A stretch of 56,676 nt of DNA from assembly GCA_002839445.1 (NCBI GenBank), contig PGYB01000006.1:128001-184676 (forward strand), in the 5' to 3' direction. The stretch is from Candidatus Riflebacteria bacterium HGW-Riflebacteria-1. Lineage in GTDB: Bacteria; Muiribacteriota; Ozemobacteria; Ozemobacterales; Ozemobacteraceae. Of this stretch, positions 35,869-54,043 are shown in pieces (position 1 is the first letter of the stretch; every line of letters starts with the position of its first letter). A program made the translations under genes and the position numbers. Below the pieces are notes generated by a model. It worked only from the letters and a program-made list of their open reading frames with translations, was not told the origin of the DNA and did no database searches.

Positions 35869-36188
35869 AAAAAGCGAGAGTTATAGAACCCTCAAACAAG
35901 AATTCGTCATACCTTTCCCCAGTCACAATACAGCTGACACATGACACAGGTTTGCCTCGTCAACAAGAATTGCTGACAGATACCTGCATATTTATTCTTT
36001 AATCTTTGCCAACTAAATATTGCTCGAAAATTTTGCTTTTACATGTTAATATATTGCGCAAATAACTGGCACTTTAAAGAAACTGACGCCCGCAGATCCG
36101 GTTCAACAGCGTAATCCGCCGTTAAGCCCTGCTGTGGGGGCGGCAGGTGTGATGTCATTTAGATTCTGAACGATACAGGAAGGTCGGC

Positions 36189-39100
36189 ATGAAGCGCAAA
36201 GAAGCAAAATTTGAACCACTGGCGATAGTCGGAATGAGTTGTCTTTTCCCAAAGGCTCAGAGCCTTGAAGATTACTGGGCCAACATCAAAGAAAAAGTTG
36301 ACGCAATAAGCGAAGTACCGGCGACACATTGGAATTCCGCCGACTACCTCGACAGCGACAAAAAGCGTGCCGATCATGTGTACACTTCTACCGGTGGCTT
36401 TCTTGATCCCGTTGATTTTGTGCCCGGCGATTGGGGAATCGCGCCTTCTGACCTCGACTCAATCGACACTTCGCAACTGCTTAGTCTCGTAGTCGCGCAG
36501 GGCGCTCTCAGTGACGCAGGTTACGGCGCTGCTCGCGATTTTAATCGCGACAACGTCAGTGTTATTCTTGGCCTTACCGGCACTCTTGAGATGGTTGTTC
36601 CGCTTGGCGCGCGTCTCGGGCACCCCATCTGGCGCCGGGCCATGCAACATGCCGGTATTCCGGCAGATATCACTGAAGAAGTTATTACCAACATAGGCAA
36701 AGCCTACGTTGGCTGGCAGGAAAACTCTTTCCCTGGCCTCCTTGGCAACGTTGCTGCCGGACGCATCGCGAATCGCCTTAACCTGGGCGGAACCAACTGC
36801 GTCGTCGATGCTGCCTGCGGCAGTTCGCTGGGCGCCATCAATCATGCCGCTCTCGAACTCTGGACTGGCAAAACCGACATGGTTATAACCGGCGGCGTAG
36901 ACACCTTCAATGATATTTTCATGTATATGTGTTTCTGCAAAACACCGGCCCTGTCACCCACCGGCCACGCCCGTCCTTTCAGTGTTGACAATGATGGCAC
37001 TATTCTTGGCGAGGGAATCGGCATGCTGGTGCTTAAGCGCCTGTCAGATGCTGAGCGAGATGGTGATCGTGTTTACGCCTGTATAAACGCGGTCGGCAGC
37101 TCAAGCGATGGCAAAGGCAAGGCTATTTACGCCCCCAGCCCCGTTGGTCAGAAAAAAGCCCTGATGCGCGCCTACGAAATGGCGGCGATAACGCCGCGCG
37201 ACATCAGCCTTATTGAAGCGCACGGCACCGGCACCAACGCCGGTGACGAAGTAGAAACCACGGCACTGAAAGAGCTCTATGGCATCTCTGAAAATGGTCG
37301 ACCATGGTGCGCCCTTGGCTCAGTCAAGTCACAGATTGGCCATACCAAGGCAGCAGCCGGCTCAGCCGGTATTATAAAAGCCGCTCTTGCTCTTTACCAT
37401 AAGGTTATTCCGCCGACTATCAAAATTTCGCAGCCAGCCAACGGCGTGCGCGGCGAAGAAGTTCCATTTTACATGCCCGATAAAATCAGACCCTGGATTA
37501 CCGATGATGCAAGGCCACGCATAGCTGCTGTCAGCGCCCTCGGATTTGGCGGCAGCAACTTTCACGTAGTCGTATCTGAATACAAGTCAGAGAAGACTGT
37601 TGACGACTGGAAGCGCAGCGTAGAACTGGTTACCATTTCTGGCAAAACTCCGGCTGAGATCGAAAATCGTCTGGCAAGCCTGACCAGTTGCAAAAATGCT
37701 TACCAGCTGCGCAAATACGCCGCTGAATCACGCCGCGACTTTAATGCCGACGATAATTGTCGACTGACTTTCGTAGTCGAAGCAATTCACGATATTGAAA
37801 AGATCGTTACCGATATTACCGGTAATCTGTCCAAGAAAGACGGTTCTTTTAATCTGCCAAATGGCGTGTATTATGCCACTGGCGAACAGAAAGCACCGGT
37901 CGGTGTAATTTTTCCCGGTCAGGGAGCGCAATATCCCGGAATGAGTCTCGACCTCGTCTGCAGCAATCAACAGGCTTTTGCCGCCTTTATCGAAGCTGAC
38001 CAGGCAATTTCGTCTCTCGACGCGCAAAACAATCACCTTGTTGATTACGTGTATCCACGCCCGACCTACGATTCCGAAAAAGACAAACTCAACGATGAAA
38101 AACTGCGGGCAACCGACATCGCGCAGCCGGCAATAGGCGCAATAGCTCTTGGCCAGTATCGCGCGCTTGAAGCGTTCGGCCTGCACGCCGATGGCTTTGC
38201 CGGCCATTCATACGGCGAGCTGGTAAGCCTCTGTGCTGCCGGCGCATTTGATAACGCAACTCTGGCAAAACTCTCGCGCAAACGCGGGCAGTTGATGGCT
38301 CAGGGCAGCGGCGACCGCGGCGGCATGATTGCCGTTGCCGCAGATCGCACCTTTGTTAAAGAACTGATCGCCGAAGAAAATCTCGATCTCGTGGTAGCCA
38401 ATCACAACTCACCACAACAGGTTGTGCTTTCCGGCAAAACCTCGGAAATCGAACGCTCACGCGAAGTTTTTAAAGCGCGCAAACTGCGTGCTACCGTGCT
38501 TAATGTCGCCGGCGCCTTTCACAGCAAATTTGTTTCTGACGCTGCCGAACCGTTCCACGCGTTTCTGGCCAGCGAAAAAATCAGCAAACCCTCGGTGCCG
38601 GTATACGCGAATACAACCGCTACCCCCTACCCTTCAGATACTGAAGAGATTAAAAAGCTTCTCGGCTTTCAACTTGCCAACCAGGTGCGTTTCGTCGAAA
38701 TCATCGAAAAAATGTACGCCGACGGAATAAGAACCTTTATTGAAGCCGGGCCCGGCGGAAAAATCACGGGTCTGATCAAGTCTATTCTTGAGGGCCGCGA
38801 ATGCAACATTATCGCGGTCGATTCATCTGCCGGCAAACGTTCTGGCCTCAATGATCTGGCCAGAGTGCTCGCCCAGCTCAGCGCGATCGGCTATAAACTG
38901 CAGGTCACCCGCTGGCAGGACGGCGAAAACTGGCTGGCACAGCAGCCCCAGAACGTCAAACCGAAACTGACTTTCCCGGTCTGCGGCGCCAATTACAAAT
39001 CGCCGGCACATGTTAAATTTTGCGAGGAACTCGCGAAACCGGCGACAGCAAAGCTGATCACCAGCAAAACACCGCCGGCACCGGCAAGCCAGCCGGCCGC

Positions 39101-42100
39101 TAACCAGTCGAGACCTGCGGCTAATATTGCCCCGGCGCCTCAGCCGCAATCTCAGCAACAATCTCAACCGCAGCAGCCAATCTCTTACGTGGCGCCGGCG
39201 CCTGTTATGCCAGCAGCCACCAACGAAGCTCTCAGACTTTCACGCGAAACCCTTTCGGCCATGCAGCAGCTGCAGCAACAAACTGCTGAACTGCACCGCC
39301 GCTTCCTCGAAGGTCAGGAAACCGCGCAAAGAACCATCATGGCGCTGGTTTCAGGGCAGAGCATGCCTGCCGCCAACGCAGCAACTTTTGCGCAGCCGGC
39401 AGCAATGCCGACTCCAGTGCGCGCTCAGCCAGCCGTTTACGCAACGCAACCAGCCCAGGCACCTGTCATGCCGCAGCCCCAGGCTGCACAGCCGATAGCT
39501 CAGGCAGTCAGGGCAACACCAGTTGCAGCGCCAGTAGCAGCCACACCGGCAGCTCCGGATACCAGCCGCATTCAGCCTGTTCTGCTTGATGTCGTGAGTG
39601 AGAAGACCGGTTATCCTGTTGAAATGCTGAACCTCGACATGGATATGGAAGCTGACCTCGGCATCGACTCGATCAAACGCGTCGAAATCATGTCGGCCAT
39701 GCAGGAACGCCTGCCCGATGCCCCGGTAGTTCAGCCCGACCAGCTTGGCAAACTGCGCACACTTACCCAGATACTTCAGTATCTCGGCAGTAATACCAGC
39801 GCGACAGCGACAAAAGCTCCATCTGCAGCGACTTCTACCGCTGCTTCTGCCGCAACGCCCGATACCAGCCGCATTCAGCCGGTTCTGCTTGATGTCGTGA
39901 GTGAAAAAACCGGTTATCCTGTGGAAATGCTGAACCTCGACATGGATATGGAAGCCGATCTCGGCATTGACTCGATCAAACGCGTCGAAATTATGTCGGC
40001 CATGCAGGAACGCCTGCCTGACGCACCCGTAGTGCAGCCTGATCAGCTTGGCAAGCTGCGCACGCTCACCCAGATACTTCAGTATCTCGGCAGCAACGCA
40101 GGTGCACCAGTCAGCGCCGCGCCGGTTCCGCAATCTGCCAGCAATGCCGGGGCAGCTGCGATCAAGCCTGTTTTGATCGAAATTGTCAGTGAAAAAACCG
40201 GTTACCCCGCCGAAATGCTGAACCTCGACATGGATATGGAAGCTGACCTTGGTATCGACTCGATCAAACGCGTCGAAATCATGTCGGCCATGCAGGAACG
40301 CCTGCCCGACGCGCCGGTAGTGCAGCCTGATCAACTTGGTAAACTGCGCACGCTTGCCCAGATTCTCGAGTATCTTGGTTCTGGCAGCAACAATGCAGCG
40401 CAGCCGACAGCTGCTCATAGCACCCCGGCAGCAATACCCGGAATAAACGGCATATTGCTCGAAGTTATTGCCGACAAAACCGGTTACCCGACTGAAATGC
40501 TCAACCCTGACATGGATATGGAAGCCGACCTCGGAATAGACTCGATCAAGCGCGTCGAAATTCTCTCGGCTTTTCAGGAACGGGTCCCTGAAGCTCCAGT
40601 AGTGCAGCCCGGTGATCTCGGAAAGTTCAGAACCATCTCTCAGATACTTGAGTATCTGAATGCTGGCAATGCCGCACCGGCGGCAGTAGCAGCTGAACCC
40701 GCAAAACCAGCGGTCGCGATTAAACTTGAGCCATTAGCTCTCGACAAGGCGACACCCGAGCATTTTCCCATCAAACGCACAGTCTTGCGGGCATATGAAC
40801 TTGGTGCAAGCACAGCAGCGCCCTTGAAAAACCTTAAAAAAGGCGACAGTCTGATCGTAGTTGATGATGGCTATGGTCTTGCCGAAGCTGTTTGTGAGCA
40901 GTTCGCAGCAGCAGGTTACCAGCCATGCCGAGTTAAGCTTGCTGATGTCGGCGCCGCGAAGTTTCTCAATACTATAAAGGGCTTTGTTCTGATCGCGCCG
41001 CTGCCCGAAAAGGCTGCACACAACCTTTGGGAGAGGTCGTCAGAAGAATGGCTTAAAGACTGTTTCATCGCTGCCCAGAAAGCTGGCATGGCTATTAAAG
41101 CTAATGGCAGCGGCCTGTTCGCAACTGTTTCACGACTTGATGGCGCATTTGGCCTTGAATCGCCGACCCGCACCATAGACCCGGTTCAGGGTGGCCTCGC
41201 CGGACTGAGCAAGACAATTGCCCACGAATGGCCAGAAATGTCAGTGCGCGCTATCGACCTTGATTACCGCTTCAAAGACATGCAAAGTGCTGCCGAAAAA
41301 CTGGTCAGGGAACTGTTGCAGCAGGGACCACTGGAAACCGGCCTTACCCGCTCAGCCCGCTATGGTCTGCGCGAAGTAGAAGAGCAGATAGATGAACTAC
41401 CCGGCTCAGATATGCTGCGCCAGGGTGAAACCGTAGTGGTCACTGGTGGTGCCCGCGGTGTAACAGCTGAAACAGCGCTCGAAATGGCAGTCAAGTATCA
41501 CACCAACATGGTGCTGATCGGCCGTTCGCCTGAGCCAACACCTGAACCAGCCTGGTTGAAGGGTGTCACTGGTGACGCTGCAGTTAAACAGGCAATCCTC
41601 AAGAACAGCAGCAAAAAATTGTCGCCCAAAGAACTCGAAGCTGAGTTCAAATCAACCATGGCTAACCGCGAAGTTCTTCACAACCTCGCGCGCATAAACA
41701 GCGCCGGAGTCAAAGCCTTATATTATTCAGCCGATATTCGCGATGCTGATGAGACTGCCCGCGTAATTGATCGCGCGCGCAGTGAATCAGGTCCAATACG
41801 TGCCCTGATGCATGGCGCAGGCGTATTGCGCGACCGCCGCATCGAAGACAAAACGCGTGATCAGCTTGATGATGTTATCGATACCAAGGTAGCCGGCTTG
41901 CGTAATCTGCTGCTGGCCACAACCAAAGACGACCTCAAAGCGATAATCCTCTTCTCATCTTTCTCCGGGCGCTTCGGTAGAACAGGCCAGGTCGATTACT
42001 CAATGGCCAACGAAGTGCTGAATAAAGCAGCCCACAAATTGCGTATCAACAGACCGGGATGCCGAGTGCTTTCATTTAACTGGGGCCCATGGGACGGTGG

Positions 42101-43130
42101 CATGGTAACGCCTTCTCTGCGCAGCGTCTTCCTTGCCGAGGGAATTGGCCTGATACCATTGCGCGATGGCGCGAGACAGCCAATTATTGAACTTAGTCAG
42201 AACTCTTCTGATGCAGTAGAAATTGGCATTATTGGTGAGATAGCCAGCGTGGAGGCTCCGCCCCCCGGAAAAAAGTTCGATAAGGTTTTTGACTTTGATA
42301 TCAATCTGAAGGAAAACGCCTGGCTCAAAGACCACGTGATCAATGGCGATCCGGTTCTGCCGATGGCAGTAGCCGCCGAACTGCTGGCACAGGCTGCTAC
42401 TTTGCGCAACCCCGGGCTGCTCTTTGCCGGCTATGATGAATTGCGCGTCCTCAAAGGCCTGGTGCTCAAAGAGCATAACCTGCCGGTAACTCTCTACGCT
42501 GCCCGGCCCCGCAAGTGTGAAGAAGGCTTCAAGGTGACCTGTGAGATCAGAAGCCTTATCGGCGCGCGCGAAATCGTGAATATCCGTGCCGAAGTTCTTC
42601 TGGTTGAGCAGCTGTCTACGCGTATACCGGCGGCTGTCAAGGCTGACGCCCATCTGGTATACCCGGATTCAATAAATGAGGCCTATCAGAACCACCTGTT
42701 CCATGGCGAATTTCTCAAAGCATTGCAGACCGTCGAAGGCTGGTCGGAAAACGGTATCGTGGCACAATCTGCCACTGCGCTTGACCCGATCGCGTGGTTC
42801 GCCCGTCCGCCAATGTTGCGCTGGCACACTGATCCGCTGGTGGTCGACGCGGCCTACCAGCTCATGATTCTCTGGACCACTCAGGCCTGCGGCGCACCCT
42901 CACTGCCCAGTTTTGCCCGACACTACCGCCAATACGCCAGCGGTTTTGGAAAAGTGCCGGTTACAGTTTCTGCCCGTACCAGACGCAGCGGCGCCATGAT
43001 GGCCAGTGCCGACATAGATTTTATCGATGCCTCAGGCAATCTTCTGGCCAGAATCGAAGGCTATGAATGCACGATGAATGAAAATCTGCGCAACGCTTTC
43101 ATGCTCAGGTCTGTTGGTGGAGCTGAATAA
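36189..43130 (+). CDS. pfaA: PfaA-like polyunsaturated fatty acid/polyketide synthase subunit: KS - MAT - 4x ACP - KR - PKS-type DH
   Basis: KS active site VVDAACGSSLGAINHAALEL. AT motif GHSYGELVSLCAAG. Four tandem ACPs, each with LGIDSIKRVEI(M/L)SA. KR Rossmann VVVTGGARGVTAE. DH motif HVINGDPVLPMAVAAELL. AGGAAGG RBS lies 6 nt upstream. The stop overlaps the next start (TAATG at 43128-43132). Confidence 0.95.
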   Translation: MKRKEAKFEPLAIVGMSCLFPKAQSLEDYWANIKEKVDAISEVPATHWNSADYLDSDKKRADHVYTSTGGFLDPVDFVPGDWGIAPSDLDSIDTSQLLSLVVAQGALSDAGYGAARDFNRDNVSVILGLTGTLEMVVPLGARLGHPIWRRAMQHAGIPADITEEVITNIGKAYVGWQENSFPGLLGNVAAGRIANRLNLGGTNCVVDAACGSSLGAINHAALELWTGKTDMVITGGVDTFNDIFMYMCFCKTPALSPTGHARPFSVDNDGTILGEGIGMLVLKRLSDAERDGDRVYACINAVGSSSDGKGKAIYAPSPVGQKKALMRAYEMAAITPRDISLIEAHGTGTNAGDEVETTALKELYGISENGRPWCALGSVKSQIGHTKAAAGSAGIIKAALALYHKVIPPTIKISQPANGVRGEEVPFYMPDKIRPWITDDARPRIAAVSALGFGGSNFHVVVSEYKSEKTVDDWKRSVELVTISGKTPAEIENRLASLTSCKNAYQLRKYAAESRRDFNADDNCRLTFVVEAIHDIEKIVTDITGNLSKKDGSFNLPNGVYYATGEQKAPVGVIFPGQGAQYPGMSLDLVCSNQQAFAAFIEADQAISSLDAQNNHLVDYVYPRPTYDSEKDKLNDEKLRATDIAQPAIGAIALGQYRALEAFGLHADGFAGHSYGELVSLCAAGAFDNATLAKLSRKRGQLMAQGSGDRGGMIAVAADRTFVKELIAEENLDLVVANHNSPQQVVLSGKTSEIERSREVFKARKLRATVLNVAGAFHSKFVSDAAEPFHAFLASEKISKPSVPVYANTTATPYPSDTEEIKKLLGFQLANQVRFVEIIEKMYADGIRTFIEAGPGGKITGLIKSILEGRECNIIAVDSSAGKRSGLNDLARVLAQLSAIGYKLQVTRWQDGENWLAQQPQNVKPKLTFPVCGANYKSPAHVKFCEELAKPATAKLITSKTPPAPASQPAANQSRPAANIAPAPQPQSQQQSQPQQPISYVAPAPVMPAATNEALRLSRETLSAMQQLQQQTAELHRRFLEGQETAQRTIMALVSGQSMPAANAATFAQPAAMPTPVRAQPAVYATQPAQAPVMPQPQAAQPIAQAVRATPVAAPVAATPAAPDTSRIQPVLLDVVSEKTGYPVEMLNLDMDMEADLGIDSIKRVEIMSAMQERLPDAPVVQPDQLGKLRTLTQILQYLGSNTSATATKAPSAATSTAASAATPDTSRIQPVLLDVVSEKTGYPVEMLNLDMDMEADLGIDSIKRVEIMSAMQERLPDAPVVQPDQLGKLRTLTQILQYLGSNAGAPVSAAPVPQSASNAGAAAIKPVLIEIVSEKTGYPAEMLNLDMDMEADLGIDSIKRVEIMSAMQERLPDAPVVQPDQLGKLRTLAQILEYLGSGSNNAAQPTAAHSTPAAIPGINGILLEVIADKTGYPTEMLNPDMDMEADLGIDSIKRVEILSAFQERVPEAPVVQPGDLGKFRTISQILEYLNAGNAAPAAVAAEPAKPAVAIKLEPLALDKATPEHFPIKRTVLRAYELGASTAAPLKNLKKGDSLIVVDDGYGLAEAVCEQFAAAGYQPCRVKLADVGAAKFLNTIKGFVLIAPLPEKAAHNLWERSSEEWLKDCFIAAQKAGMAIKANGSGLFATVSRLDGAFGLESPTRTIDPVQGGLAGLSKTIAHEWPEMSVRAIDLDYRFKDMQSAAEKLVRELLQQGPLETGLTRSARYGLREVEEQIDELPGSDMLRQGETVVVTGGARGVTAETALEMAVKYHTNMVLIGRSPEPTPEPAWLKGVTGDAAVKQAILKNSSKKLSPKELEAEFKSTMANREVLHNLARINSAGVKALYYSADIRDADETARVIDRARSESGPIRALMHGAGVLRDRRIEDKTRDQLDDVIDTKVAGLRNLLLATTKDDLKAIILFSSFSGRFGRTGQVDYSMANEVLNKAAHKLRINRPGCRVLSFNWGPWDGGMVTPSLRSVFLAEGIGLIPLRDGARQPIIELSQNSSDAVEIGIIGEIASVEAPPPGKKFDKVFDFDINLKENAWLKDHVINGDPVLPMAVAAELLAQAATLRNPGLLFAGYDELRVLKGLVLKEHNLPVTLYAARPRKCEEGFKVTCEIRSLIGAREIVNIRAEVLLVEQLSTRIPAAVKADAHLVYPDSINEAYQNHLFHGEFLKALQTVEGWSENGIVAQSATALDPIAWFARPPMLRWHTDPLVVDAAYQLMILWTTQACGAPSLPSFARHYRQYASGFGKVPVTVSARTRRSGAMMASADIDFIDASGNLLARIEGYECTMNENLRNAFMLRSVGGAE
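39556..40650 (+). repeat. Four tandem ACP-domain-encoding repeats (~290 nt each; copies 1 and 2 almost identical at DNA level)
   Basis: ccggataccagccgcattcagcc(t/g)gttctgcttgatgtcgtgagtga... recurs at ~39556 and ~39857, with further diverged copies at ~40160 and ~40445. Confidence 0.85.
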
Positions 43131-46100
43131 TGACTGCAAATGCCCTGCCGCGAAAGCCTTTCGCTATAGCAATAACCGGTGTTGGCGGGATGTTCCCGGG
43201 CGCAGACAGTCTCGATGACTTCTGGCAGATGATCGCCGAAGGGCGCAGTGCTGCGGCAGAAGTGCCAGCAGGTCGCTGGCCGGAAGCAGCTGTCAAATAT
43301 CATGACCCACGCCCCGGCACTCCTGATCGCGTATTGTCACCGCGCAATTGCGCGTTAAAGAGCATTCCAAAGAACTATGCTCACTTGCAGATAAGCCCGG
43401 AACTTGTTGAAAAGCTTGATCCGCTGCTGGCAATCAGTCTTCAGGTCGGTCGCGATGCCTTCCTGGATGCAGTTACCACCGGTCTTGACCTTAACCGGGT
43501 TCAGGTAATTCTTGCCAATATCGTGCTGCCAACCGATACGGCCAGCGTCATCACACGCGAAATGCATATATCAGCTCTGCGTGAGCAACTTGGCAAAGGC
43601 CTGGTCAGTTCTAAAAGCAGCGAAGTTCACCCGCTTAACCGTCTGGCGGCAGAACTCCCGGCAACTTTGCTCGCTTCGGCTCTTGGCCTCGGTGGCGGCG
43701 GCTATACTCTTGACGCTGCCTGCGCCTCTTCTCTTTACGCAATAAAACTTGCCTGCGAAGAACTCACGGCGCGGCGTGCTGACGCAGTATTGACTGGCGG
43801 TGTGTCGCGGCCGTCATCGCAGTTCACCCAGATGGGCTTTTCGCAACTGCACGCCTTGTCAAAGACCGGCATCTGCCGACCTTTCGACCAGGGCGCTGAT
43901 GGTCTGGTAGTCGGCGAAGGCGCCGGCATGTTCCTGCTCAAACGTCTGGCTGACGCCGAAGCAGCCGGAGACAAGATTTACGCGGTAATCCGTGGTATCG
44001 GCCTGGCCAACGACGTTGGCGGCAGCCTGCTCGCCCCCGACACCGAAGGCCAGATGCGCGCCATGACCCAGGCATATCAACAGGCAGGTTGGCAGCCGCG
44101 CGACGTTCAACTTATTGAATGCCACGGCACCGGCACACCCAAGGGTGATGCCATAGAATTCAGCAGCCTGCATCAGCTCTGGCAGAATGAAAAATCCTCT
44201 GCCGCGAAATGTGTTATCGGCTCGGTCAAGTCAAATGTTGGCCATCTTCTCACCGGAGCCGGAGCCGCCGGCCTGATGAAACTCCTGATGGCACTCAAAA
44301 ACCGGCAACTGCCGCCAACAGCCAATTTTAACCAGGCTGACCCGGCAATCGCCATAGAACAGAGCCACTTTGAAATACTTAAACAACCTCGCGCCTGGGA
44401 GCCAGCCCCTGAACAACCGCGCCGCTGCGCGCTCAGCGCTTTCGGCTTTGGCGGCATCGATGGCCATGTTCTGCTCGAAGAATATTGCAATAACTCGAAA
44501 AAGCCTGCTGCGAAAGCAAAACAAGCGGAAGCCGCACCCGAGCCGCTGCCTGAAATCGCCATAGTAGCCATAGAAACCAGAGCCGGCACCCTGCCCGATC
44601 TCAATGCGTTTCAAAAAGCCGTTATAAATTGTGAGCCGGCGATCAGAGATATTCCTGACAACCGCCACCCCATTACCTCAAACGCCGCCTGGCTTAAAAA
44701 AGGAGCCTATCTCGATGAGATCGCGATAAGACCCGGCGAATTCAAAATCAGCCCGAAAGAGATTCCCGAAATTCTTCCGCAGCAGCTGCTGATGCTGCAA
44801 ACCGCCGATCATGCTCTGCGCTCAATCAAACGCACCCCGGAAGAAACCCGCAACTGGGGCGTCTATATGGGCATAAATCTCGATTTTGCCAGCACCAGCT
44901 TCGCCAGCCGCTGGGCGATCGAAAAAGATGCTCGAGCCGCCGGGTTTGAAGGCATAGCCATGGCTGATCTCGCTGATGCCATCACGCCTCCACTCAACAA
45001 CCCGCGCACCGTTGGCGCGCTCGGTGGAATTGTTGCCAGCCGCATTGCCCGCGAATACAATATAGGCGGCCCATCGCACACTTTTTCAAGTGGCGAGAAC
45101 TCTGGCCTTTCGGCTCTCGAAGCCGGAACTCGCGCGCTGCAACGTTACGAAATTTCGGCAGCACTGGTCGGAGCAGTCGATCTTGCCGGCGATCTGCGCA
45201 ACCTTAACTGCATCGACGCCCTCAGACCCTTCTCGCGCAAAAATGGTTCGGTAGCATTTGACCAGAGCGCTGACGGGGCATTCCCGGGCGAAGGCGCTGT
45301 AGCTCTTGTTATTAAACGCAAAGAAGATGCCCTGCGCGATGGCAACCGCATAATCGCGCTGGTTAAGGGTATTGGCCGTTCGACGCAAACCAGTCCTGGT
45401 GACCGCGATTCAGCAATAGAGGCCTACGGCCGCGCCATGCACACCGCCTGGAACGAGTCAGGGCTGAATATTGCAGGCATGGGCCTGCTCGAAGTTCACG
45501 GCAGCGGCAACCCTGACGAAGATAGAATCGAAGCGGCAGCTCTCGCCAAGACTCTGCCTGGCAAAGATCAGTCGGCACAAAACCGCTTTAAAAGCAACGA
45601 TCAGCTTTGCGCCCTCTCGGCCAGTAAAATGGTCGTCGGCCACACTGGCGCAGCCGCCGGCCTCTTCTCTCTGGCCAAAGCCGCTGTGTGTCTGTATCAA
45701 CAGGTTCTGCCGCGTTACCCCGGCATGCAGAACCCTATCCCTGATATGCAAAACAGGGAAGACTTCTTCTTTACGCCTGCTGAACCGCAATTCTGGTTGC
45801 GCAACCGCATTCAGGGCGAGCGAACAGCCGGAATAAGCAGTTTCACCATCGACGGCAACTTCTATCACGTAGTTCTGCAGGCACTCGAAAACGAGGATCA
45901 GTTGCCTGTGGAAGTTCAGATTGACAACGAGCGTGCTCGCTGCTTTCCTGGCGGCGCGCCCGAAGAAAGTCTTTTTATCGTCGGTGGCATCAATGCCTGC
46001 GATACTCGCGAACGTCTGGCTGCTCTAAGAAACATGGCAGACCGCCCGATTCGGCAGTTGGCCGCTGAATACTGGCAGCAATACGCCCCCGGAGACTACG

Positions 46101-49100
46101 CCAACTGCTTTGCCGCGGTAGTAGCCGATTCCGAAACTACTCTGCGCCGCCGCGTTGATATCGCGCTGAATCATCTCTACAACAATGAAAACAGTCCGAT
46201 GCCTGCTGGTCCTGAGATTCAGGACCGAATTTTCTATAACCCGAATCCCTCAGCGGCGAACGGCAAGATCACTTTTGCCTTTCCCGGTTCTGGCAACCAT
46301 TTTCTTGGCATGGGCACAGCACTTGGTCTTACCTGGCCCGAGCATCTGCGCCGCCTCGATGCAGAACATGAACTGTTGGCCGCGCAGTTCGCACCGCGCT
46401 TAACCGCGCCATGGCGCCTGAGTTACGCACCAGGCTGGCAGGATGACGCCATGCACCAGCTCATTGCTGACCACAATTCACTGGTTTTCAGCCATGTGTC
46501 GTGCTGCGCGCTGGTGAGCGATGTTGTCAGAAGCTTTGGTATTGAACCGGAAATCATCATGGGCTACAGTCTTGGTGAAACCGCGGGCAATTTTGCCACG
46601 CGCACCTGGCGCGAACGCGATGAAATGGTGCGGCGCATGCGCAGTTCGAACCTCTTTACTACTGAGCTGATCGGACGCTACAACTCGCCGCGCCGCCAAT
46701 GGGGCATCGCTGAGAATGAAGTTGTTGAATGGTATCTCGGCGTTATTTACAGCCCGGCAGCGAAGGTCGAAAAGCTGCTGCCAGACTTTCCACAGACCTA
46801 TATTCTCATCGAAAACACCGCCGAAGAATGCGTTATTGGTGGCAACCGCGTCCAGGTCGAAAAGCTGGCCAAAGCCGTTGGCAAAGCCTTCTTTCCGCTC
46901 GAAGGCGTGTCGTCGGTACATTGCGAGGCTGCCTTGCCTTCAGCTGAAGACTATCGTGCACTGCACCTGTATGACTGTCACCCGCCCACCGGCATGACTT
47001 TTATCAGCAGCGGTAAGGGCACTGTCTTTACGCCGCAGCGCGAAGTTTCAGCAGACTCGATCAAAGCGCAGTGTATAGGCCGTATCAACTTTATTAAATG
47101 TGTTGAAACCGCTTACGCCGAAGGAGCGCGCCTGTTTCTTGAAATCGGCCCACGCGCCTCGATGTCGCGCATGATCAGCAATATTCTCGGCCAGCGTCCG
47201 CACTTTGCCAGATCAGCGCTGCTGCATGGCCAGAATCAGGTCAGCAGTATGCTGCGCTTTATCGGTAACGTTGCCGCCGAGGGCGTTAAAGTTGATCTCT
47301 CCCCGCTTTATCGCCAGGCCGAAGCGCCGGCAGCAGCAGTTGCCAGCAAAATCGCGCCCGTAATCATCAAGGTCGCCCACCAGATTGACATCGGCAAACT
47401 GCAGCGTCGTGAAACGGTTGCCGCAACACCGGTTGTCGCAGCACAGTCAACAGCGAAGACCGTAATCCAGGCCGCCGCGCCAACTCCTGTTGAGCGTGCT
47501 ATGACAGTCGACGGCACCACAGATTCTGCCGCCAGATTTGTAACATCAGAAAGTTCAGCCATGAAAAGCCAATCAGCTCAGCCTTCGCCCACAACCCGCC
47601 CGGCTCACATACAGCAGCCAACAACATTGCCTGCAGCAACCAGCCCGCAGCAATATCAAGCTCCCGTTTCTGTCCCGGCTCGACTCAGCGACCTGCCGCA
47701 GCATCCTGCCAATCTTGCAGCCGGTTCTAATTCGCTGCTCGACGGCTGGGTCGCCGCGCAGCACGAAACCGCACGTGCGCATGAAGTATTTCTGCGCCTG
47801 AGCTCGCAGATCGGCGAAGCGCATGCTACATTGCTTAACCAGCAATTGCAGCTCATGCAGGGCATGCCAGCGCAAAATATGCTGGCAGAATTGCCGGATG
47901 AGTCGTGCGCGCAACTGCCAGCGCCTTCGCAGCTGCCGGTTTCGCTGACTCCCGACTACACGCAGCGCATGCCCAGACCTTATACCGGGCCTTTGTTCAT
48001 CGACTGGCACGGCTCGATGGAATTCGCTGTCGGCAAAATCGGCAAGGTTCTCGGCGAATATTTCGCGCCGATTGACGCGAACCCGACGCGCGTGCGCCTG
48101 CCCGACATCCCGCTCAACTTCGTCGACCGTATAGTGCTCGTTGAGGGCGAAAAAGGCTCACTTGGCAAGGGGCGCTGCGTTACCCAGCACGATGTCTACC
48201 CCGACAGCTGGTACCTCGACAATTACTGCATGCCGACCGGGCTTTCAGTTGAAGCCGGTCAGGCTGACCTCTTTCTCTCCGCCTGGCTCGGTATCGACTT
48301 TAAAACGCACGGCGTCGCTAAATATCGACTGCTTGACGCGATTGTTACCATTCACGGCCCCCTGCCCCGCCCCGGCGACACGGTAAATTACGATATTCGC
48401 GTTGACCGTTTCATCAGGCAGGCCAACACTTACCTGTTCTTCTTTGAATTCGACGGCAGCATCGACGGGAGACAGCTGATTACCATGCGTGCTGGCTGCG
48501 CCGGCTTCTTTACCGACCGTCAGCTTGCCGACGGCAAGGGAATCGTGCTGACAGACGACGACACCAGGCCTGATCCCCGCCCCAACCTGCCCGGGCGACA
48601 AAACCTGCCGACCATGCGGGTAGAATCATTCAATGATTCGGCCCTCGCCGCGCTGCGCGCGGGCAACCTCGCCGCCGCTTTCGGCAGCGAGTTCGCCGGC
48701 CTCCCGGTGACACCGCAGACTATTCCATCGCGCAAGATGGCGATGATCGACCGGATCACTGAAATAGACCCGACCGGCGGCCGCTTCGGCCTCGGACGCA
48801 TCAAGGCTGAAATTGATATTCCAATAGATGCCTGGTTCTTGACCCAGCACTTCTGTGACGATCAGGTCATGCCCGGCACGCTGATGTATGAGTCGTGCAT
48901 GCAGTCGCTGCGCGTTTTCCTGCTGCGCATGGGCTGGGTGGCTGACGCTTCAACCTCAGCTTTTGAGCCGGTTCTCGAAGTGCAAAGCCAGCTGCGCTGC
49001 CGTGGTCAGGTTACCCCGGGCGTCAAAAAAGCCCTTTATGATATCTCGATCAAGGAACTCGGCTACAACCCTGAACCCTACGCCATTGCCGATGCGCTGA

Positions 49101-50386
49101 TGTTCGCCGACGGCAACCGCATAGTGCAGGTGCTCAACATGAGCATCCGACTTACCGGAGCCAGTCGCGAGAGCATCGAGGCCCTCTGGCAAAACCGTGT
49201 TCAACACCACGCTGTTACTCCAGTTCCACAGGCAAGCGAGATTCTGCCGGCTATCTACAGCGGTCAGCAGATTCTTGAATACGCGATTGGCAAGCCTTCT
49301 CTCTGTTTCGGCGAAAAATTCGTGCCCTTTGATGAGCAGAGGTTCCTCGCCCGCCTGCCAAATCCGCCATATCTTTTTGTCGACCGCATAACCGCTGTCA
49401 ACGCGGAATTTCTCAAGATCAAGACCGGCGGTACCGTTCAGGGGCAGTTTGATATCAGCCCCGATCACTGGTTCTTCAAGGCCAATCGCCAGACCAGCAT
49501 TCCGTTCTCGATTCTGCTCGAATTCCCGCTGCAGGTCTGCGGCTGGTATTCATGCTATATGGGCTCGGCGTTCGCCAACGAAAAAGAACTGCACTACCGC
49601 AACCTCGACGGTTCGGCGACGCTCTACGAAGATGTCAACATCAACAGCGGCACCCTGACAGCTACGGTCACCACTACCAGAGCCGCTAACTCTGCCGGAA
49701 TGCTGATTCAGTCTTTCGACATGCTGGTCACCCAGGCTGGTCGCAAGATCTACGAAGGCAATACCACCTTCGGTTTCTTCGCTAAGGAAGCTCTCGCCAA
49801 CCAGGTTGGCTTTCGCGGGCTCGAGCTCTATGAGCCTTCAGAAGCCGAGAAGCAGCGCCATGTTGACTTCCCGCTCGAAATCGTGTCACCGCTTAATCCG
49901 CAGGACACTCGCGTTGACGCGATGAATGGTCTCGCCCTTCCCGGCAAATGCTACCTGATGCTCGACCGCATCGAACTGTGCATTCCCGACGGTGGTCCGG
50001 CCGGACTGGGCTTTATCAGAGGCACTAAGCAGGTCGACCCGTCGGAGTGGTTCTTTAAGGCACACTTCTATCAGGACCCGGTCATACCCGGCTCTCTCGG
50101 CCTTGAGTCCTTCATTCAGCTGATGAAAGTCGCGGCGATTAAGCGCTGGGGCACTCAGCTCGCCGGTCGTAACTGCCACTATGAACCGATGGCGCTGAAC
50201 CAGAAGCATACCTGGTCATATCGCGGTCAGGTCATTCCAAAGGATAATCTGGTAACCGTCGATGCCTGCATAACCAGGGTCGATGACGCTGATCATCTGC
50301 TGGTTGCCGAAGGCTTCCTCAAGGTAGATGGACGTATAATCTACAGCATGAAAGAGTTTGCGCTCAGAGTTGTAATTGATGGCTAA
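43130..50386 (+). CDS. pfaC: PfaC/PfaB-fusion-like PUFA synthase subunit: KS - CLF - AT - 2x FabA-like DH
   Basis: KS Cys LDAACASSLYAIKLACEEL. The second KS-like domain lacks the Cys (SSGENSGLSALEAG), so it is a chain-length factor. AT motif IMGYSLGETAGNFATR. Two FabA-type motifs (LTQHFCDDQVMPGTLMYESCMQ; FFKAHFYQDPVIPGSLGLESFIQ), each preceded by a pseudo-hotdog half. No enoyl-reductase domain. Confidence 0.95.
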   Translation: MTANALPRKPFAIAITGVGGMFPGADSLDDFWQMIAEGRSAAAEVPAGRWPEAAVKYHDPRPGTPDRVLSPRNCALKSIPKNYAHLQISPELVEKLDPLLAISLQVGRDAFLDAVTTGLDLNRVQVILANIVLPTDTASVITREMHISALREQLGKGLVSSKSSEVHPLNRLAAELPATLLASALGLGGGGYTLDAACASSLYAIKLACEELTARRADAVLTGGVSRPSSQFTQMGFSQLHALSKTGICRPFDQGADGLVVGEGAGMFLLKRLADAEAAGDKIYAVIRGIGLANDVGGSLLAPDTEGQMRAMTQAYQQAGWQPRDVQLIECHGTGTPKGDAIEFSSLHQLWQNEKSSAAKCVIGSVKSNVGHLLTGAGAAGLMKLLMALKNRQLPPTANFNQADPAIAIEQSHFEILKQPRAWEPAPEQPRRCALSAFGFGGIDGHVLLEEYCNNSKKPAAKAKQAEAAPEPLPEIAIVAIETRAGTLPDLNAFQKAVINCEPAIRDIPDNRHPITSNAAWLKKGAYLDEIAIRPGEFKISPKEIPEILPQQLLMLQTADHALRSIKRTPEETRNWGVYMGINLDFASTSFASRWAIEKDARAAGFEGIAMADLADAITPPLNNPRTVGALGGIVASRIAREYNIGGPSHTFSSGENSGLSALEAGTRALQRYEISAALVGAVDLAGDLRNLNCIDALRPFSRKNGSVAFDQSADGAFPGEGAVALVIKRKEDALRDGNRIIALVKGIGRSTQTSPGDRDSAIEAYGRAMHTAWNESGLNIAGMGLLEVHGSGNPDEDRIEAAALAKTLPGKDQSAQNRFKSNDQLCALSASKMVVGHTGAAAGLFSLAKAAVCLYQQVLPRYPGMQNPIPDMQNREDFFFTPAEPQFWLRNRIQGERTAGISSFTIDGNFYHVVLQALENEDQLPVEVQIDNERARCFPGGAPEESLFIVGGINACDTRERLAALRNMADRPIRQLAAEYWQQYAPGDYANCFAAVVADSETTLRRRVDIALNHLYNNENSPMPAGPEIQDRIFYNPNPSAANGKITFAFPGSGNHFLGMGTALGLTWPEHLRRLDAEHELLAAQFAPRLTAPWRLSYAPGWQDDAMHQLIADHNSLVFSHVSCCALVSDVVRSFGIEPEIIMGYSLGETAGNFATRTWRERDEMVRRMRSSNLFTTELIGRYNSPRRQWGIAENEVVEWYLGVIYSPAAKVEKLLPDFPQTYILIENTAEECVIGGNRVQVEKLAKAVGKAFFPLEGVSSVHCEAALPSAEDYRALHLYDCHPPTGMTFISSGKGTVFTPQREVSADSIKAQCIGRINFIKCVETAYAEGARLFLEIGPRASMSRMISNILGQRPHFARSALLHGQNQVSSMLRFIGNVAAEGVKVDLSPLYRQAEAPAAAVASKIAPVIIKVAHQIDIGKLQRRETVAATPVVAAQSTAKTVIQAAAPTPVERAMTVDGTTDSAARFVTSESSAMKSQSAQPSPTTRPAHIQQPTTLPAATSPQQYQAPVSVPARLSDLPQHPANLAAGSNSLLDGWVAAQHETARAHEVFLRLSSQIGEAHATLLNQQLQLMQGMPAQNMLAELPDESCAQLPAPSQLPVSLTPDYTQRMPRPYTGPLFIDWHGSMEFAVGKIGKVLGEYFAPIDANPTRVRLPDIPLNFVDRIVLVEGEKGSLGKGRCVTQHDVYPDSWYLDNYCMPTGLSVEAGQADLFLSAWLGIDFKTHGVAKYRLLDAIVTIHGPLPRPGDTVNYDIRVDRFIRQANTYLFFFEFDGSIDGRQLITMRAGCAGFFTDRQLADGKGIVLTDDDTRPDPRPNLPGRQNLPTMRVESFNDSALAALRAGNLAAAFGSEFAGLPVTPQTIPSRKMAMIDRITEIDPTGGRFGLGRIKAEIDIPIDAWFLTQHFCDDQVMPGTLMYESCMQSLRVFLLRMGWVADASTSAFEPVLEVQSQLRCRGQVTPGVKKALYDISIKELGYNPEPYAIADALMFADGNRIVQVLNMSIRLTGASRESIEALWQNRVQHHAVTPVPQASEILPAIYSGQQILEYAIGKPSLCFGEKFVPFDEQRFLARLPNPPYLFVDRITAVNAEFLKIKTGGTVQGQFDISPDHWFFKANRQTSIPFSILLEFPLQVCGWYSCYMGSAFANEKELHYRNLDGSATLYEDVNINSGTLTATVTTTRAANSAGMLIQSFDMLVTQAGRKIYEGNTTFGFFAKEALANQVGFRGLELYEPSEAEKQRHVDFPLEIVSPLNPQDTRVDAMNGLALPGKCYLMLDRIELCIPDGGPAGLGFIRGTKQVDPSEWFFKAHFYQDPVIPGSLGLESFIQLMKVAAIKRWGTQLAGRNCHYEPMALNQKHTWSYRGQVIPKDNLVTVDACITRVDDADHLLVAEGFLKVDGRIIYSMKEFALRVVIDG

Positions 50387-50419: not shown

Positions 50420-51460
50420 ATGAAATTTACCCGCGTATTTCTTGAAGCCATCGGCTACGAACTGCCTCAGCATGTTGTTACTTCGTCCTGGATCGAAGAA
50501 CAGCTTGCTCCGCTGTACCGCAAATTGCATCTACAGCCTGGCCAGCTCGAAGCGCTTACCGGAATACGCGAGCGCCGCTGGTGGGGGCACAACCATGTTA
50601 ACGCGGTCGAAGCCGCCAAGGCAGCCAAGAAGGCCCTGGCCGAAACTGATATACCGGTCGAAGATATCGGCGCTGTCGTCTATGGCGGCGTCTGTCGCGA
50701 CAACTACGAACCTGCTACCGCCTGCCACGTTGCCGCTGAGCTGAAAGTGCGTGCCGAGACCGCGATCTGCGATGTCTCGAACGCCTGTCTTGGCGCCATG
50801 AGTGGCATTATCGATATTGCTAACCGCATCGAACTTGGGCAGATCAAGGCTGGTATCGTTGTTGCCTGCGAAACTGCCCGCGATATTACGCAAATCATGA
50901 TTCAGCGCATGCTCGAAGAAGGTTCAATGGAATTTTTTAAACAGGCGCTCGCCACCATGACCGGCGGCTCTGGCGCCTGCGGCATTGTGCTCAGCGATGG
51001 TTCATACGGCGAAAGAGGCCCACGGCTTGCTGGCGGTGTAATTCTCGGCGCACCCGAACATCATCGCATGTGCCGCTGGGGAGCTGATCAGCGTATTCCG
51101 GCCCGCGCCCCGCAGATGATGGAAACCAACGCCATTGGTATGCTGCGCCACGGCGGAGACCTTATTCGCCGTGTTGGTGAAGCTTTCTGGCGCGAACTGA
51201 ACTGGACCAGCGACCAGCTTGACAAGATAATTTCGCATCAGGTGGCCAGCGCTAACCGCGACGCCATACTCAATAACCTCGGCCTGACGCTCGAAAAAGA
51301 TTTTTCGACCTTTCAGTTTCTTGGCAACATGGGAACCGTTTCTCTGCCGGTTACCGCAGCGATCGCCATGGAACGCGGCATCCTCGAAAAGAACCAGAAA
51401 GTCGGATTTGTCGGCATCGGAAGCGGTCTTAACAGCATGATGCTCGGATGGGAATGGTAA
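50420..51460 (+). CDS. oleA: OleA (FabH-like thiolase catalysing head-to-head Claisen condensation)
   Basis: KAS-III/thiolase fold with catalytic Cys in ICDVSNACLGAMSGIIDIAN. Sits 34 nt downstream of pfaC and is followed by oleBCD. Confidence 0.85.
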   Translation: MKFTRVFLEAIGYELPQHVVTSSWIEEQLAPLYRKLHLQPGQLEALTGIRERRWWGHNHVNAVEAAKAAKKALAETDIPVEDIGAVVYGGVCRDNYEPATACHVAAELKVRAETAICDVSNACLGAMSGIIDIANRIELGQIKAGIVVACETARDITQIMIQRMLEEGSMEFFKQALATMTGGSGACGIVLSDGSYGERGPRLAGGVILGAPEHHRMCRWGADQRIPARAPQMMETNAIGMLRHGGDLIRRVGEAFWRELNWTSDQLDKIISHQVASANRDAILNNLGLTLEKDFSTFQFLGNMGTVSLPVTAAIAMERGILEKNQKVGFVGIGSGLNSMMLGWEW

Positions 51461-51461
51461 T

Positions 51462-52355
51462 ATGACATTTAACCACGCAGAATATCAGGATATCTATCCT
51501 TTCACCCCGCACCATTTTACGCACCAATCAGGCTTGAAACAGCATTATGTCGACGAGGGCAACGGCGAACCCATCGTCATGGTACATGGCAACCCGAGCT
51601 GGTCTTTTTTGTACCGCGACATGATCAGAACTTTTATGAACGGCTATCGCTGCGTTGCGCCCGACCATATTGGCTGCGGCCTTTCTGACAAGCCCGGGCT
51701 CGACAATTTCGGCTACACTCTGCGCGAGCATATCGACAACCTTGAAACGCTCATCGAAAGCCTTCAACTGACGCAGCCGATCAACCTCGTCGTGCACGAC
51801 TGGGGCGGAGCCATTGGCATGGGTTATGCCACCCGTCACCCCGAAAAAATCAAGCGCATGGTCATTCTTAATACCGGCGCGTTCAGGCTGCCACAGGATT
51901 GCCCTTTCCCATGGCCTGTCTGGCTGTTCAGAAACACCGATCTCGGTGCCTGCCTTAACCAGACTTTCAACGCCTTCTCTTTTATCGCCAGTCACACCTG
52001 CTCGCTTAAAGGCATGAGCCGCAAGGTGCGTCACGGTTTCCGGGCGCCCTACGACAGCCCTGCCAACCGCGTCGCCACCACCCGCTTCGTGCAGGATATC
52101 CCACTGGTCGCTGATGATCCTTCTTACACTGAGCTTGTGCGCGTTGAAGAAAACCTCAGCAAACTCGCTGACAAACCAGCACTGATCTGCTTTGGCCGCC
52201 TCGATTTTGTGTTTACACGACATTTTTACAATGAATGGAAGCGGCATTTCCCGAAAGCAATCGCGCGCAATTTCCATGCCGGCCACTACCTGCTCGAAGA
52301 CGTTGGCTCAGAAGTATTCGCCCTGATGCGCGAACTGTTAGAATCACGATCCTGA
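51462..52355 (+). CDS. oleB: OleB (alpha/beta-hydrolase, haloalkane-dehalogenase-like beta-lactone decarboxylase)
   Basis: Asp nucleophile in NLVVHDWGGAIGMGYA. HGNPSWSFLYR oxyanion region. C-terminal His (FHAGHYLLED). 1-nt gap after oleA. Confidence 0.85.
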   Translation: MTFNHAEYQDIYPFTPHHFTHQSGLKQHYVDEGNGEPIVMVHGNPSWSFLYRDMIRTFMNGYRCVAPDHIGCGLSDKPGLDNFGYTLREHIDNLETLIESLQLTQPINLVVHDWGGAIGMGYATRHPEKIKRMVILNTGAFRLPQDCPFPWPVWLFRNTDLGACLNQTFNAFSFIASHTCSLKGMSRKVRHGFRAPYDSPANRVATTRFVQDIPLVADDPSYTELVRVEENLSKLADKPALICFGRLDFVFTRHFYNEWKRHFPKAIARNFHAGHYLLEDVGSEVFALMRELLESRS

Positions 52356-52372
52356 ACCCGGGAGCACATACC

Positions 52373-54043
52373 ATGCCTGAACCACAAAACCAGGGCTTCA
52401 ACATGGCGGCTTTTATCCGCCAGAAAGCCGCGCTAACTCCGCACAAACGAGCCATTGTGGTTCCCTCCTGTCGCAACAGTTACGGCCGTGTCGCCTACAC
52501 TCAACTGACTTTTCGGCAGCTCGAAGAAGAAACCAACCGCTTTGCCCGCGGCTTCAACCGCGCCGGAATCGGCCGTGGCAGCAAAACCGTGCTGATGATC
52601 ACACCCGGCATTGAATTTTTTATTGCCTTTTTCGCACTGTGCAAGGTCGGCGCAACTCTGGTTATGATCGACCCGGGCATCGGCATGGCCAGCCTCAAGA
52701 CATGTATCGGGGAAGCGAAACCCGAGGCCTTTGTCGGCATTACCAAGGCCCACGTCGCGCGCGTTCTTATGCGCTGGGCGCCTGACAGCATCAAAATTCG
52801 CGTAACTCTTGGCCCTCGCCTGTTCTGGGGCGGCCACAAATTTTATGACCTGCGTGACAATGACGCGTCGCCTTATGAAATCGCGATGATGCCGCGCGAT
52901 GAGATGGCGGCGTTGATGTTCACTTCGGGCAGCACTGGCATTTCGAAAGGTGCTGTCTACACGCAGGGCATTCTCTGCAGCCAGGTTCAGTATATACAGG
53001 AAATCTACGGCTTTACCCCCGACGATGTTGATCTCGCGACTTTTCCGCTTTTCGCCCTGTTCGATGTCTGTCTCGGCATGACCGCGGTAATTCCTGACAT
53101 GGACGCAACCAAGCCGGCCAAAGCCGACCCGCGCAAGCTCACCGAAGCGATTAACGACAACGGTGCCACCTCGATGTTCGGCTCGCCGGCACTCATTGAC
53201 ACTCTCAGTCGCTGGGGCGTTGAGAATTCGGTCACACTGCCGTCGCTGCGCAAGGTTCTTTCCTGTGGTGCGCCGGCGCGCAATGATATTCTGCAGCGCT
53301 TTCACCGCATGCTCCCCCAAGACTGCGAGATTTTTACTCCTTACGGCGCTACTGAAGCGCTGCCGGTCAGCTCGATCGGCAGTCGCATGATTCTCGGCGA
53401 AACCGCGCCGATCACTGACGCCGGCGGCGGCACCTGCGTTGGCTTGCCTATTCCGAGCGTCAAAGTTAGAATAATCAAGATCAGCGACGAGCCGATCACG
53501 CAATGGAACGATGATCTTGTCGTCACTGCCGGCGAAATTGGCGAGATTACGGTCACCGGGCCGATCGTCACCCGTGAATACTATAGCCGCCCCGAAAGCA
53601 CCATGCAGGCCAAGATTGTCGACGGCAACAGCATCTGGCACCGCATGGGCGATCTCGGTCGCATTGATGAGCAGGGGCGCGTCTGGTTCTGCGGCCGCAA
53701 GTCACATCGCGTCGTTGGCGAAAACCAGACCTGGTTCTCGATTCCCTGTGAGCGCGTCTATAATCAGCATTCGCATGTATTCAGAACCGCCCTGGCCGGA
53801 ATCGGCGAAAAGGGAAAACAGGTTCCGGTAATCTGCGTCGAGCTTGAGAAGGGCGTCGCCGAAGTCAATACCGAAAAGCTTATTGCCGAGCTCATCGAGA
53901 TCGGCAGCAGACATCAGCATACTGCGGCCATAAAGCATTTTCTAATTCATCCGGGGTTCCCCGTCGATATTCGCCACAACGCCAAGATCAGCCGCGAAAA
54001 ACTATCTGAATGGGCCACCGAAAAGCTCAAGGGGCGCATTTAA
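52373..54043 (+). CDS. oleC: OleC (AMP-dependent synthetase family; beta-lactone synthetase)
   Basis: AMP-binding motif MFTSGSTGISKGAVYT, with later YGATEA and GEI motifs. The likely start ATG at 52373 is 17 nt after the oleB stop. The ORF-track start at 52235 would overlap oleB by 120 nt. Confidence 0.85.
   Translation: MPEPQNQGFNMAAFIRQKAALTPHKRAIVVPSCRNSYGRVAYTQLTFRQLEEETNRFARGFNRAGIGRGSKTVLMITPGIEFFIAFFALCKVGATLVMIDPGIGMASLKTCIGEAKPEAFVGITKAHVARVLMRWAPDSIKIRVTLGPRLFWGGHKFYDLRDNDASPYEIAMMPRDEMAALMFTSGSTGISKGAVYTQGILCSQVQYIQEIYGFTPDDVDLATFPLFALFDVCLGMTAVIPDMDATKPAKADPRKLTEAINDNGATSMFGSPALIDTLSRWGVENSVTLPSLRKVLSCGAPARNDILQRFHRMLPQDCEIFTPYGATEALPVSSIGSRMILGETAPITDAGGGTCVGLPIPSVKVRIIKISDEPITQWNDDLVVTAGEIGEITVTGPIVTREYYSRPESTMQAKIVDGNSIWHRMGDLGRIDEQGRVWFCGRKSHRVVGENQTWFSIPCERVYNQHSHVFRTALAGIGEKGKQVPVICVELEKGVAEVNTEKLIAELIEIGSRHQHTAAIKHFLIHPGFPVDIRHNAKISREKLSEWATEKLKGRI

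Follow-up and report, generated by a model that had tools for sequence, protein, structure and literature searches.

The locus described here raises the question of how a polyunsaturated fatty acid (PUFA)-type synthase is supplied with an enoyl reductase (ER) and a phosphopantetheinyl transferase (PPTase) when neither is encoded beside it. It lies in a 56,676-nt stretch of Candidatus Riflebacteria DNA, termed the window, and coordinates without a locus name are those of this full stretch. A single tightly packed run of genes on the plus strand, in the order pfaA-pfaBC-oleA-oleB-oleC-oleD, encodes the synthase and an olefin pathway. The locus is the core of a Geobacter-type (Shulse–Allen Type I-like) pfa–ole supercluster in Riflebacteria. 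With a probability of roughly 0.8, it specifies a normal Pfa synthase that feeds OleA and receives its ER and PPTase in trans from an unlinked pfaD-pfaE pair. Relocation of a conserved module made up of pfaD and pfaE appears to be the best explanation for the absence of ER and PPTase from the window, pfaD being the gene of the ER and pfaE that of an Sfp-type PPTase.

The fused PfaBC protein is central to the question. This 2418-aa product (43130–50386, plus strand, as are all its domains) consists of a ketoacyl synthase (KS), a chain-length factor (CLF), an acyltransferase (AT) and two dehydratase (DH) domains. The order KS-CLF-AT-DH-DH, with GYSLGE in the AT, had been proposed by an earlier sequence-only reading, and is borne out by Pfam, NCBIfam, motifs and BLASTP against Shewanella proteins, the latter taken from locus L033. 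The KS domain (aa 12–494; 43163–44611) has its active-site cysteine in DAACASS (aa 195–201). The CLF (approximately aa 521–920; 44690–45889) is a cysteine-less KS-like domain. It is the second of two ketoacyl-synthase modules matched by Pfam, has no DxxCxS motif, and gives a weak paralogous BLASTP match to the first KS of Shewanella PfaC (residues 81–502, E = 8e-18). The PfaB-type AT (aa 948–1393; 45971–47308) carries GYSLGE at aa 1145–1150 (nt 46562–46579) and a weak Acyl_transf_1 match (Pfam, aa 994–1355). Residues 1039–1393 match the NCBIfam model TIGR02816 (pfaB_fam) with E = 1.8e-25, at 89.7 bits, which is under the whole-protein cut-off of 144.3. The tandem FabA-like dehydratase/isomerase region (47759–50374) comprises four hot-dog folds, and hence two DH domains. 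Pfam matches four FabA hot-dog stretches (E = 7e-85), NCBIfam FabA/FabZ models match aa 1863–2009 and 2295–2404, and the catalytic histidine motifs of the form HFxxDxVxPG are HFCDDQVMPG (His1907) and HFYQDPVIPG (His2312). In BLASTP, the whole protein is a colinear mosaic of the Shewanella sequences: aa 13–732 align to PfaC 26–801 (E = 4e-86), aa 948–1393 to PfaB 271–758 (E = 1.4e-21), and aa 1544–2415 to the DH-DH region of PfaC (E = 6e-118). Recent work identifies PfaB itself as a terminal long-chain acyltransferase (PMC12895367).

PfaA (2313 aa; 36189–43130, plus strand) is equally conventional in its content. Pfam resolves a KS (aa 9–506), a malonyl acyltransferase (MAT, 574–856), four acyl carrier protein (ACP) domains, a ketoreductase (KR, 1748–1969) and a polyketide synthase-type DH (PS-DH, 2032–2299). 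The protein scores 1697 bits against TIGR02813 (omega_3_PfaA; cut-off 1010) and is 37% identical to Shewanella PfaA. There are exactly four LGIDS phosphopantetheine sites (Ser1161, 1262, 1358 and 1452), matching the four PP-binding domains found by Pfam. The four ACPs, which had seemed few to the sequence-only reading, are thus real and within the canonical range. Type A PfaA proteins have 4–6 ACPs (Shulse & Allen 2011, PMC3098273), and a review describes four (PMC4882568).

Nor is the architecture of PfaBC new, as the label 'non-canonical' had implied. KS-CLF-AT-DH2 pfaBC fusions were defined in Types C, H, I and K of Shulse & Allen 2011 (PMC3098273). The Type I cluster was there proposed to feed olefin synthesis. 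Like the window, its Geobacter bemidjiensis-type members encode tandem ACPs in PfaA, a pfaBC fusion (per Shulse & Allen) and, immediately 3' on the same strand, oleABCD; the lineages concerned are in both cases anaerobic and of subsurface type. The review describes pfaD, A, B, C, oleA-D and pfaE as a tandem series in G. bemidjiensis, a producer of C31:9 (PMC4882568). The difference is that pfaD and pfaE are in the Geobacter cluster, which they flank, whereas the window cluster is without both; other Riflebacteria have the two genes upstream, in the order pfaD-pfaE-pfaA. The missing in-cluster pfaD is therefore a difference in gene order from Type I, with no demonstrated difference in components.

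Two further systems were compared with the window. The Type A pfaABCDE cluster of Shewanella, with separate oleABCD, shares all its catalytic domain types with the window. The KS-CLF and DH-DH blocks of PfaBC are colinear with PfaC and the AT block with PfaB; unlike the window, Shewanella has PfaB as a separate protein, pfaD after pfaC, and ole genes elsewhere in the genome. Experiments in Shewanella have established that OleA draws 16:4n-3 from the ACPs of the Pfa synthase (Allemann et al. 2019, PMC6463001). The myxobacterial clusters comprise pfa1 (ER), pfa2 and pfa3 (KS-CLF-AT-DH-DH-AGPAT). According to the review (PMC4882568), they resemble the window in having the AT in the middle of a PfaC-like protein, Pfa3, and in an unlinked pfaE, which is also found in Moritella. 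In contrast to the window, the myxobacterial ER gene lies next to its cluster, and the passages of the review on these clusters mention no ole genes. Myxobacterial Pfa3 has a C-terminal acylglycerolphosphate acyltransferase (AGPAT); PfaBC of the window ends with the second DH and has no Acyltransferase PF01553 match in Pfam.

The claim that no ER/PfaD or PPTase is encoded in the window holds. The Pfam search covered every open reading frame (ORF) of at least 150 aa outside larger ORFs and most smaller ones, and gave no match to NMO/PfaD, ADH_zinc_N (the medium-chain dehydrogenase/reductase-type ER) or ACPS. Six-frame tblastn of the window with Shewanella PfaD gave no match at E ≤ 1e-3; with two Riflebacteria PfaDs and one Riflebacteria PPTase, searched at E ≤ 10, the best value was E = 0.7. 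An ER domain hidden inside either of the two large ORFs was likewise sought by Pfam and tblastn, and none was found. The stretches of PfaA and PfaBC without a domain assignment are about 240–270 aa long, mostly low-complexity linkers, and are therefore too short for a 440-aa PfaD-type domain.

Relatives show where the two genes would be expected. A scan of the genome collection with PfaA yielded 52 loci, mostly titled as Riflebacteria, Rifleibacteriota or Ozemobacter(aceae) metagenome-assembled genomes (MAGs). The closest PfaA is that of GWC2_50_8 (93%), and those of Ca. Rifleibacterium amylolyticum CH46 and HGW-Riflebacteria-2 (HGW-2) stand at about 79%. Shewanella PfaD finds a tblastn match in 23 of the 52 related loci and none in the window. 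The typical Riflebacteria layout is pfaD (approximately 555 aa), a gene for 230–270 aa, then pfaA-pfaBC-oleABCD. The gene between pfaD and pfaA encodes an Sfp-type PPTase (Pfam ACPS, E = 6e-20 to 4e-13; confirmed in three loci). Three such linked loci (L004, L020 and L023) have PfaA and PfaBC proteins 60–67% identical to those of the window, with the same domain order and GYSLGE; in L020 and L023 the match extends to the ole genes that follow. They differ in that pfaD and the PPTase gene lie immediately upstream, whereas the window's subclade has the pair at a distant locus.

The fused architecture had been tied to ER absence, and conservation of that absence among ole-linked pfa clusters had been put forward for checking. 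The comparison supports neither: the same fusion occurs in loci with pfaD and PPTase immediately upstream, and pfaD is within the cluster in most other Riflebacteria loci. KS-CLF-AT-DH-DH is the order in 20 of 20 full-length Riflebacteria PfaBC proteins, whether or not pfaD is adjacent, and the AT motif is GYSLGE in 19 of them and GYSIGE in one. PfaBC architecture says nothing about ER usage, because it is the same in all 20 regardless of the position of pfaD. This bears on the proposal of ER-free or reduced-ER chemistry, in which fully conjugated or hydroxylated polyene chains would be condensed by OleA. Its sole support is that the window encodes no ER, and we consider it very improbable. 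The identical domain architecture adjoins pfaD in most Riflebacteria, and the unlinked clade shows no compensating change in domain content. PfaBC also keeps FabA-type dehydratase/isomerase domains with catalytic histidines, typical of methylene-interrupted cis-polyene synthesis.

The distance between pfaD and pfaA was mapped onto a rough neighbour-joining tree built on the N-terminal ~520 aa of PfaA. Along this tree the gap grows towards the window. It is 33–52 bp in Planctomycetaceae and Desulfobacteraceae MAGs, approximately 0.5–1.5 kb in most of the deeper Riflebacteria, which leaves room for the PPTase gene, and 3.4–9.2 kb in most of the window's sister clade, where PAD-like, cupin and PocR-histidine-kinase genes are inserted. 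In the window's own clade there is no pfaD in the available upstream sequence (10 kb in L006, L009 and L011; 1.3–4.1 kb in L007 and L043). L009, L011 and L043 share part or all of the upstream genes of the window, namely those for an SDF transporter, a PPDK-PGK fusion and a penicillin amidase. The series is uneven, as L038 of the sister clade and the branches L014/L021/L031, L024 and L027 are also without pfaD within 9–10 kb upstream.

The sister-clade insertions between pfaE and pfaA encode a PAD-like arginine deiminase, a cupin, a PocR-PAS histidine kinase/response regulator, NAGPA and ankyrin-repeat proteins (L013 7167–9729, L017 7113–9727, L019 2872–7878, L036 6957–9704 and L083 12607–16926). 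A cupin gene directly 5' of pfaA recurs in several of these loci, possibly as an accessory of the cluster. Another Riflebacteria lineage encodes, a few kb upstream of pfaD in L083 and L084 (5640–7619, plus strand), a protein of about 656 aa with faint ketoacyl-synthase and Acyltransferase (PF01553) matches. This protein might act in lipid incorporation as an AGPAT-like partner.

The pair itself can be traced in relatives that lack it beside pfaA. With PfaD of the closest linked relative, L036, as query, a protein search matched many Riflebacteria PfaDs. In HGW-2, pfaD and pfaA share a strand of one 99,078-bp contig, with pfaD (P0023) some 56 kb upstream. Its product scores 612 bits against TIGR02814 (cut-off 449), and the PPTase gene follows it, overlapping by 17 nt. 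The CH46 pair is encoded on a 181-kb contig, where PfaD (KAF1080314.1) and the PPTase (KAF1080315.1) are neighbours; pfaA of this genome is on a 71-kb contig. A stand-alone pfaD-PPTase pair away from pfaA is also present in the metagenome contigs L055–L062 and L087–L089. Within the unlinked module (L054 10001–12386; also L055–L061), the 17-nt overlap of pfaD and the PPTase gene points to translational coupling. Threonine-pathway genes (thrB, thrC) and a VWA-domain gene lie upstream of the pair in L054 and L055.

These comparisons favour the following scheme. (i) Working iteratively, PfaA and PfaBC would assemble a polyunsaturated acyl chain on the ACPs of PfaA. (ii) OleA would condense two such chains. 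(iii) The ER PfaD and the PPTase PfaE would belong to the same system, their ancestral site being immediately upstream of pfaA. (iv) In the window's subclade, insertions and rearrangement would have separated pfaD-pfaE from pfaA. (v) As in relatives, the two genes would be kept elsewhere as a translationally coupled module that acts in trans. The sequence-only reading had offered three sources for the missing activity: an ER encoded elsewhere, borrowing of FabI or FabK, and a reduced-ER logic. The comparative data favour the first and speak against the other two, since subclade relatives keep an intact pfaD-PPTase pair at another locus.

The state of the genes argues against decay. Estimates of dN/dS for pfaA, pfaBC and oleA against L043, L006 and L009 are 0.02–0.10, ratios that are approximate with dS near saturation. 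They indicate strong purifying selection on the three genes and are incompatible with a decaying cluster. A non-functional remnant that has lost ER and PPTase would account for the lost linkage to two components considered essential, and is nevertheless hardly credible. Each of the two megagenes is an uninterrupted ORF of about 7 kb that retains every catalytic motif. Contig L001, assembled from an independent sequencing run, matches the pfaBC-ole region with 100% identity, and the pfaA-pfaBC-ole arrangement is kept in at least six MAGs of the window's clade.

Efforts to locate pfaD-pfaE in the window's own organism produced several results that weigh against supply in trans. A co-transcribed pfaD had been envisaged just outside the window; neither pfaD nor a PPTase gene occurs in the 9.5 kb past its left edge. 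Over 10,870 bp the window shows 100.000% identity to the JGI metagenome contig Ga0246096_00116 (186,840 bp), of which it represents, reversed, approximately positions 2137–58812. Walking leftwards from the TfoX protein of the window leads to contigs of 132–204 kb, among them L064, which is 100% identical to the window. The PfaD and PPTase cluster members listed, comprising every PfaD cluster closest to the HGW-2 protein and, with two exceptions, the close PPTase clusters, include none on the 132–204-kb contigs carrying the window, which makes it improbable that the pair is within about 128 kb to the left. The pair is probably on another contig, or absent. Among the listings and look-ups made, no pfaD-pfaE pair was found for the organism itself. 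The PfaDs looked up (P0019, P0022, P0032–34, P0013, P0009 and P0014) include none from SRR3546453 or from the JGI/ENA samples that hold the window. A search of metagenomes with HGW-2 PfaD gave 11 loci, none from the window's JGI projects, a miss that says little as the search used exact 8-mer peptides. No PfaD was recognized as coming from the closest relative, GWC2_50_8, which is weak evidence because the source names were incomplete. Two broader points belong with these: the tree behind the linkage series is a rough neighbour-joining one on some 500 aa, and the Riflebacteria product, probably a polyunsaturated hydrocarbon, is a prediction.

One specific location was considered. Partial synteny with HGW-2 suggested pfaE-pfaD approximately 4–5 kb past the end of L064. 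In the HGW-2 locus L054, a CitMHS gene is followed by three small genes (171, 164 and 171 aa), and in L064 a CitMHS gene stands beside small genes of 171, 165, 184 and 129 aa; in GWC2_50_8 the corresponding neighbourhood differs. The prediction is probably wrong, as none is found on the 132–204-kb contigs by the same listings.

The alternative to which these negatives point is that the species, perhaps with GWC2_50_8, has truly lost pfaD and pfaE, its synthase borrowing an ER of type II fatty acid synthesis (FabI, FabK or FabV) and another Sfp-type PPTase. We regard this as unlikely. In its favour are the lack of pfaD and PPTase in the 56.7-kb window, in the 9.5 kb beyond it and, by the listed cluster members, on the long contigs. 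Substitution of the PPTase also has precedent, as E. coli EntD complements pfaE deficiency according to the review (PMC4882568). Against it, every clade relative with a traceable pfaD keeps an intact pfaD-PPTase pair, and the negative rests on indirect look-ups among listed members rather than on a genome scan. Eicosapentaenoic acid production in E. coli employs pfaA-E even in the presence of the host's FabI, and a housekeeping ER is not known to replace PfaD; both points count against loss. If pfaD and pfaE were lost in the species (perhaps also in GWC2_50_8) and the operon yet conserved, the locus would be a natural PUFA-type synthase without a dedicated ER, with either a recruited ER of type II fatty acid synthesis or a more unsaturated product for OleA. 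That outcome too seems doubtful. Supply by an unlinked pfaD-pfaE pair remains the preferred explanation.

Downstream of pfaBC, the olefin-pathway set is complete, with OleA followed by OleB, OleC and OleD in that order. oleA (50420–51460, plus strand) encodes a thiolase-fold head-to-head condensing enzyme with 425 bits against NF006720 (cut-off 285) and Pfam matches to ACP_syn_III_C and Thiolase_N. It is 95–97% identical in L006, L008 and L009. oleB (51462–52355, plus strand) encodes a haloalkane-dehalogenase-like alpha/beta hydrolase with an Abhydrolase_1 match. oleC (52373–54043, plus strand), as called in the identical contig L001, encodes a 556-aa AMP-dependent beta-lactone synthetase that scores 710 bits against NF006754 (cut-off 478), and 630 and 620 bits against olefin beta-lactone synthetase models, below their equivalog cut-offs. 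The longest oleC ORF starts at 52235, where it overlaps oleB by 121 nt. The later start at 52373 is more likely; 556 aa fits OleC lengths in relatives. oleD (54057–55079, plus strand) encodes an NAD(P)H-dependent 2-alkyl-3-oxoalkanoate reductase with a Pfam 3Beta_HSD match. Its best match, NF042422 (E = 7e-123), reaches 410 bits, under the equivalog cut-off of 580.

The spacing of these genes suggests co-transcription. The pfaBC ORF overlaps the pfaA stop codon by one base, oleA starts 33 nt past the end of pfaBC, and the ole genes follow on the same strand at spacings of 1–33 nt, so that oleABCD is contiguous with the pfa genes. From this tight same-strand spacing alone, pfaA-pfaBC-oleABCD probably forms a single operon. 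Two small ORFs of 168 and 97 aa (55153–55949, plus strand) lie directly after oleD and have no Pfam or NCBIfam match. The first has a hydrophobic, signal-like N-terminal segment in its translation. A terminator scan places a terminator-like hairpin at 55968–55987, 3' of both. The two may be extra operon members, and the end of the operon may be marked there. They were also considered as a hidden PPTase or ER, and rejected on their small size, lack of a family match and the hydrophobic start of the 168-aa product.

At the other end, the intergenic region 5' of pfaA (35657–36188, given on the plus strand) is a divergent junction with the minus-strand penicillin-amidase gene, and corresponds to the site of pfaD-pfaE in other Riflebacteria. 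Only weak sigma-70-like matches are found in it. The gap spans about 530 bp without any ORF of at least 90 aa. In L009 (9311–9811) and L011, a small LprI-like gene of the lysozyme-inhibitor family stands between the penicillin amidase gene and pfaA; the L011 counterpart is a small minus-strand ORF upstream of pfaA.

Beyond the divergent penicillin amidase gene is that for an unusual 1406-aa PPDK-PGK fusion (28898–33118, minus strand). It combines PPDK_N, a PEP-utilizer mobile domain and a complete phosphoglycerate kinase (PGK, E = 5e-120), with about 500 N-terminal residues free of domain assignment. The fusion has the same length and is 84–85% conserved in L009 and L011. Near the left edge, two proteins (1223–2224 and 3588–5099, both plus strand) consist of long near-perfect tandem repeats, and BLASTN detects internal repeats in both regions. 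One is Gly/Asn/Gln-rich; the other has 'QQPGFKPQHRP' repeats in a DUF3106 protein beside an ECF sigma/anti-sigma pair. Alignment breaks at 4008–4697 suggest that repeat number differs in L063 and L065 relative to L064, contigs that are otherwise 99–100% identical.

The fused KS-CLF-AT-DH-DH protein and the pfa–ole linkage are known designs, and the system is now found in a candidate phylum. The value of the result is mostly corrected annotation. A literature search found no paper combining Riflebacteria with a PUFA synthase, pfaD or olefin/ole genes. The candidate phylum Riflebacteria widely carries the pfa–ole supercluster, a distribution that suggests that these subsurface anaerobes probably make polyunsaturated hydrocarbons. 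Riflebacteria also show a stepwise growing separation of pfaD-pfaE from pfaA, so that genome mining that looks for an ER gene beside the synthase genes would wrongly class such loci as ER-less.

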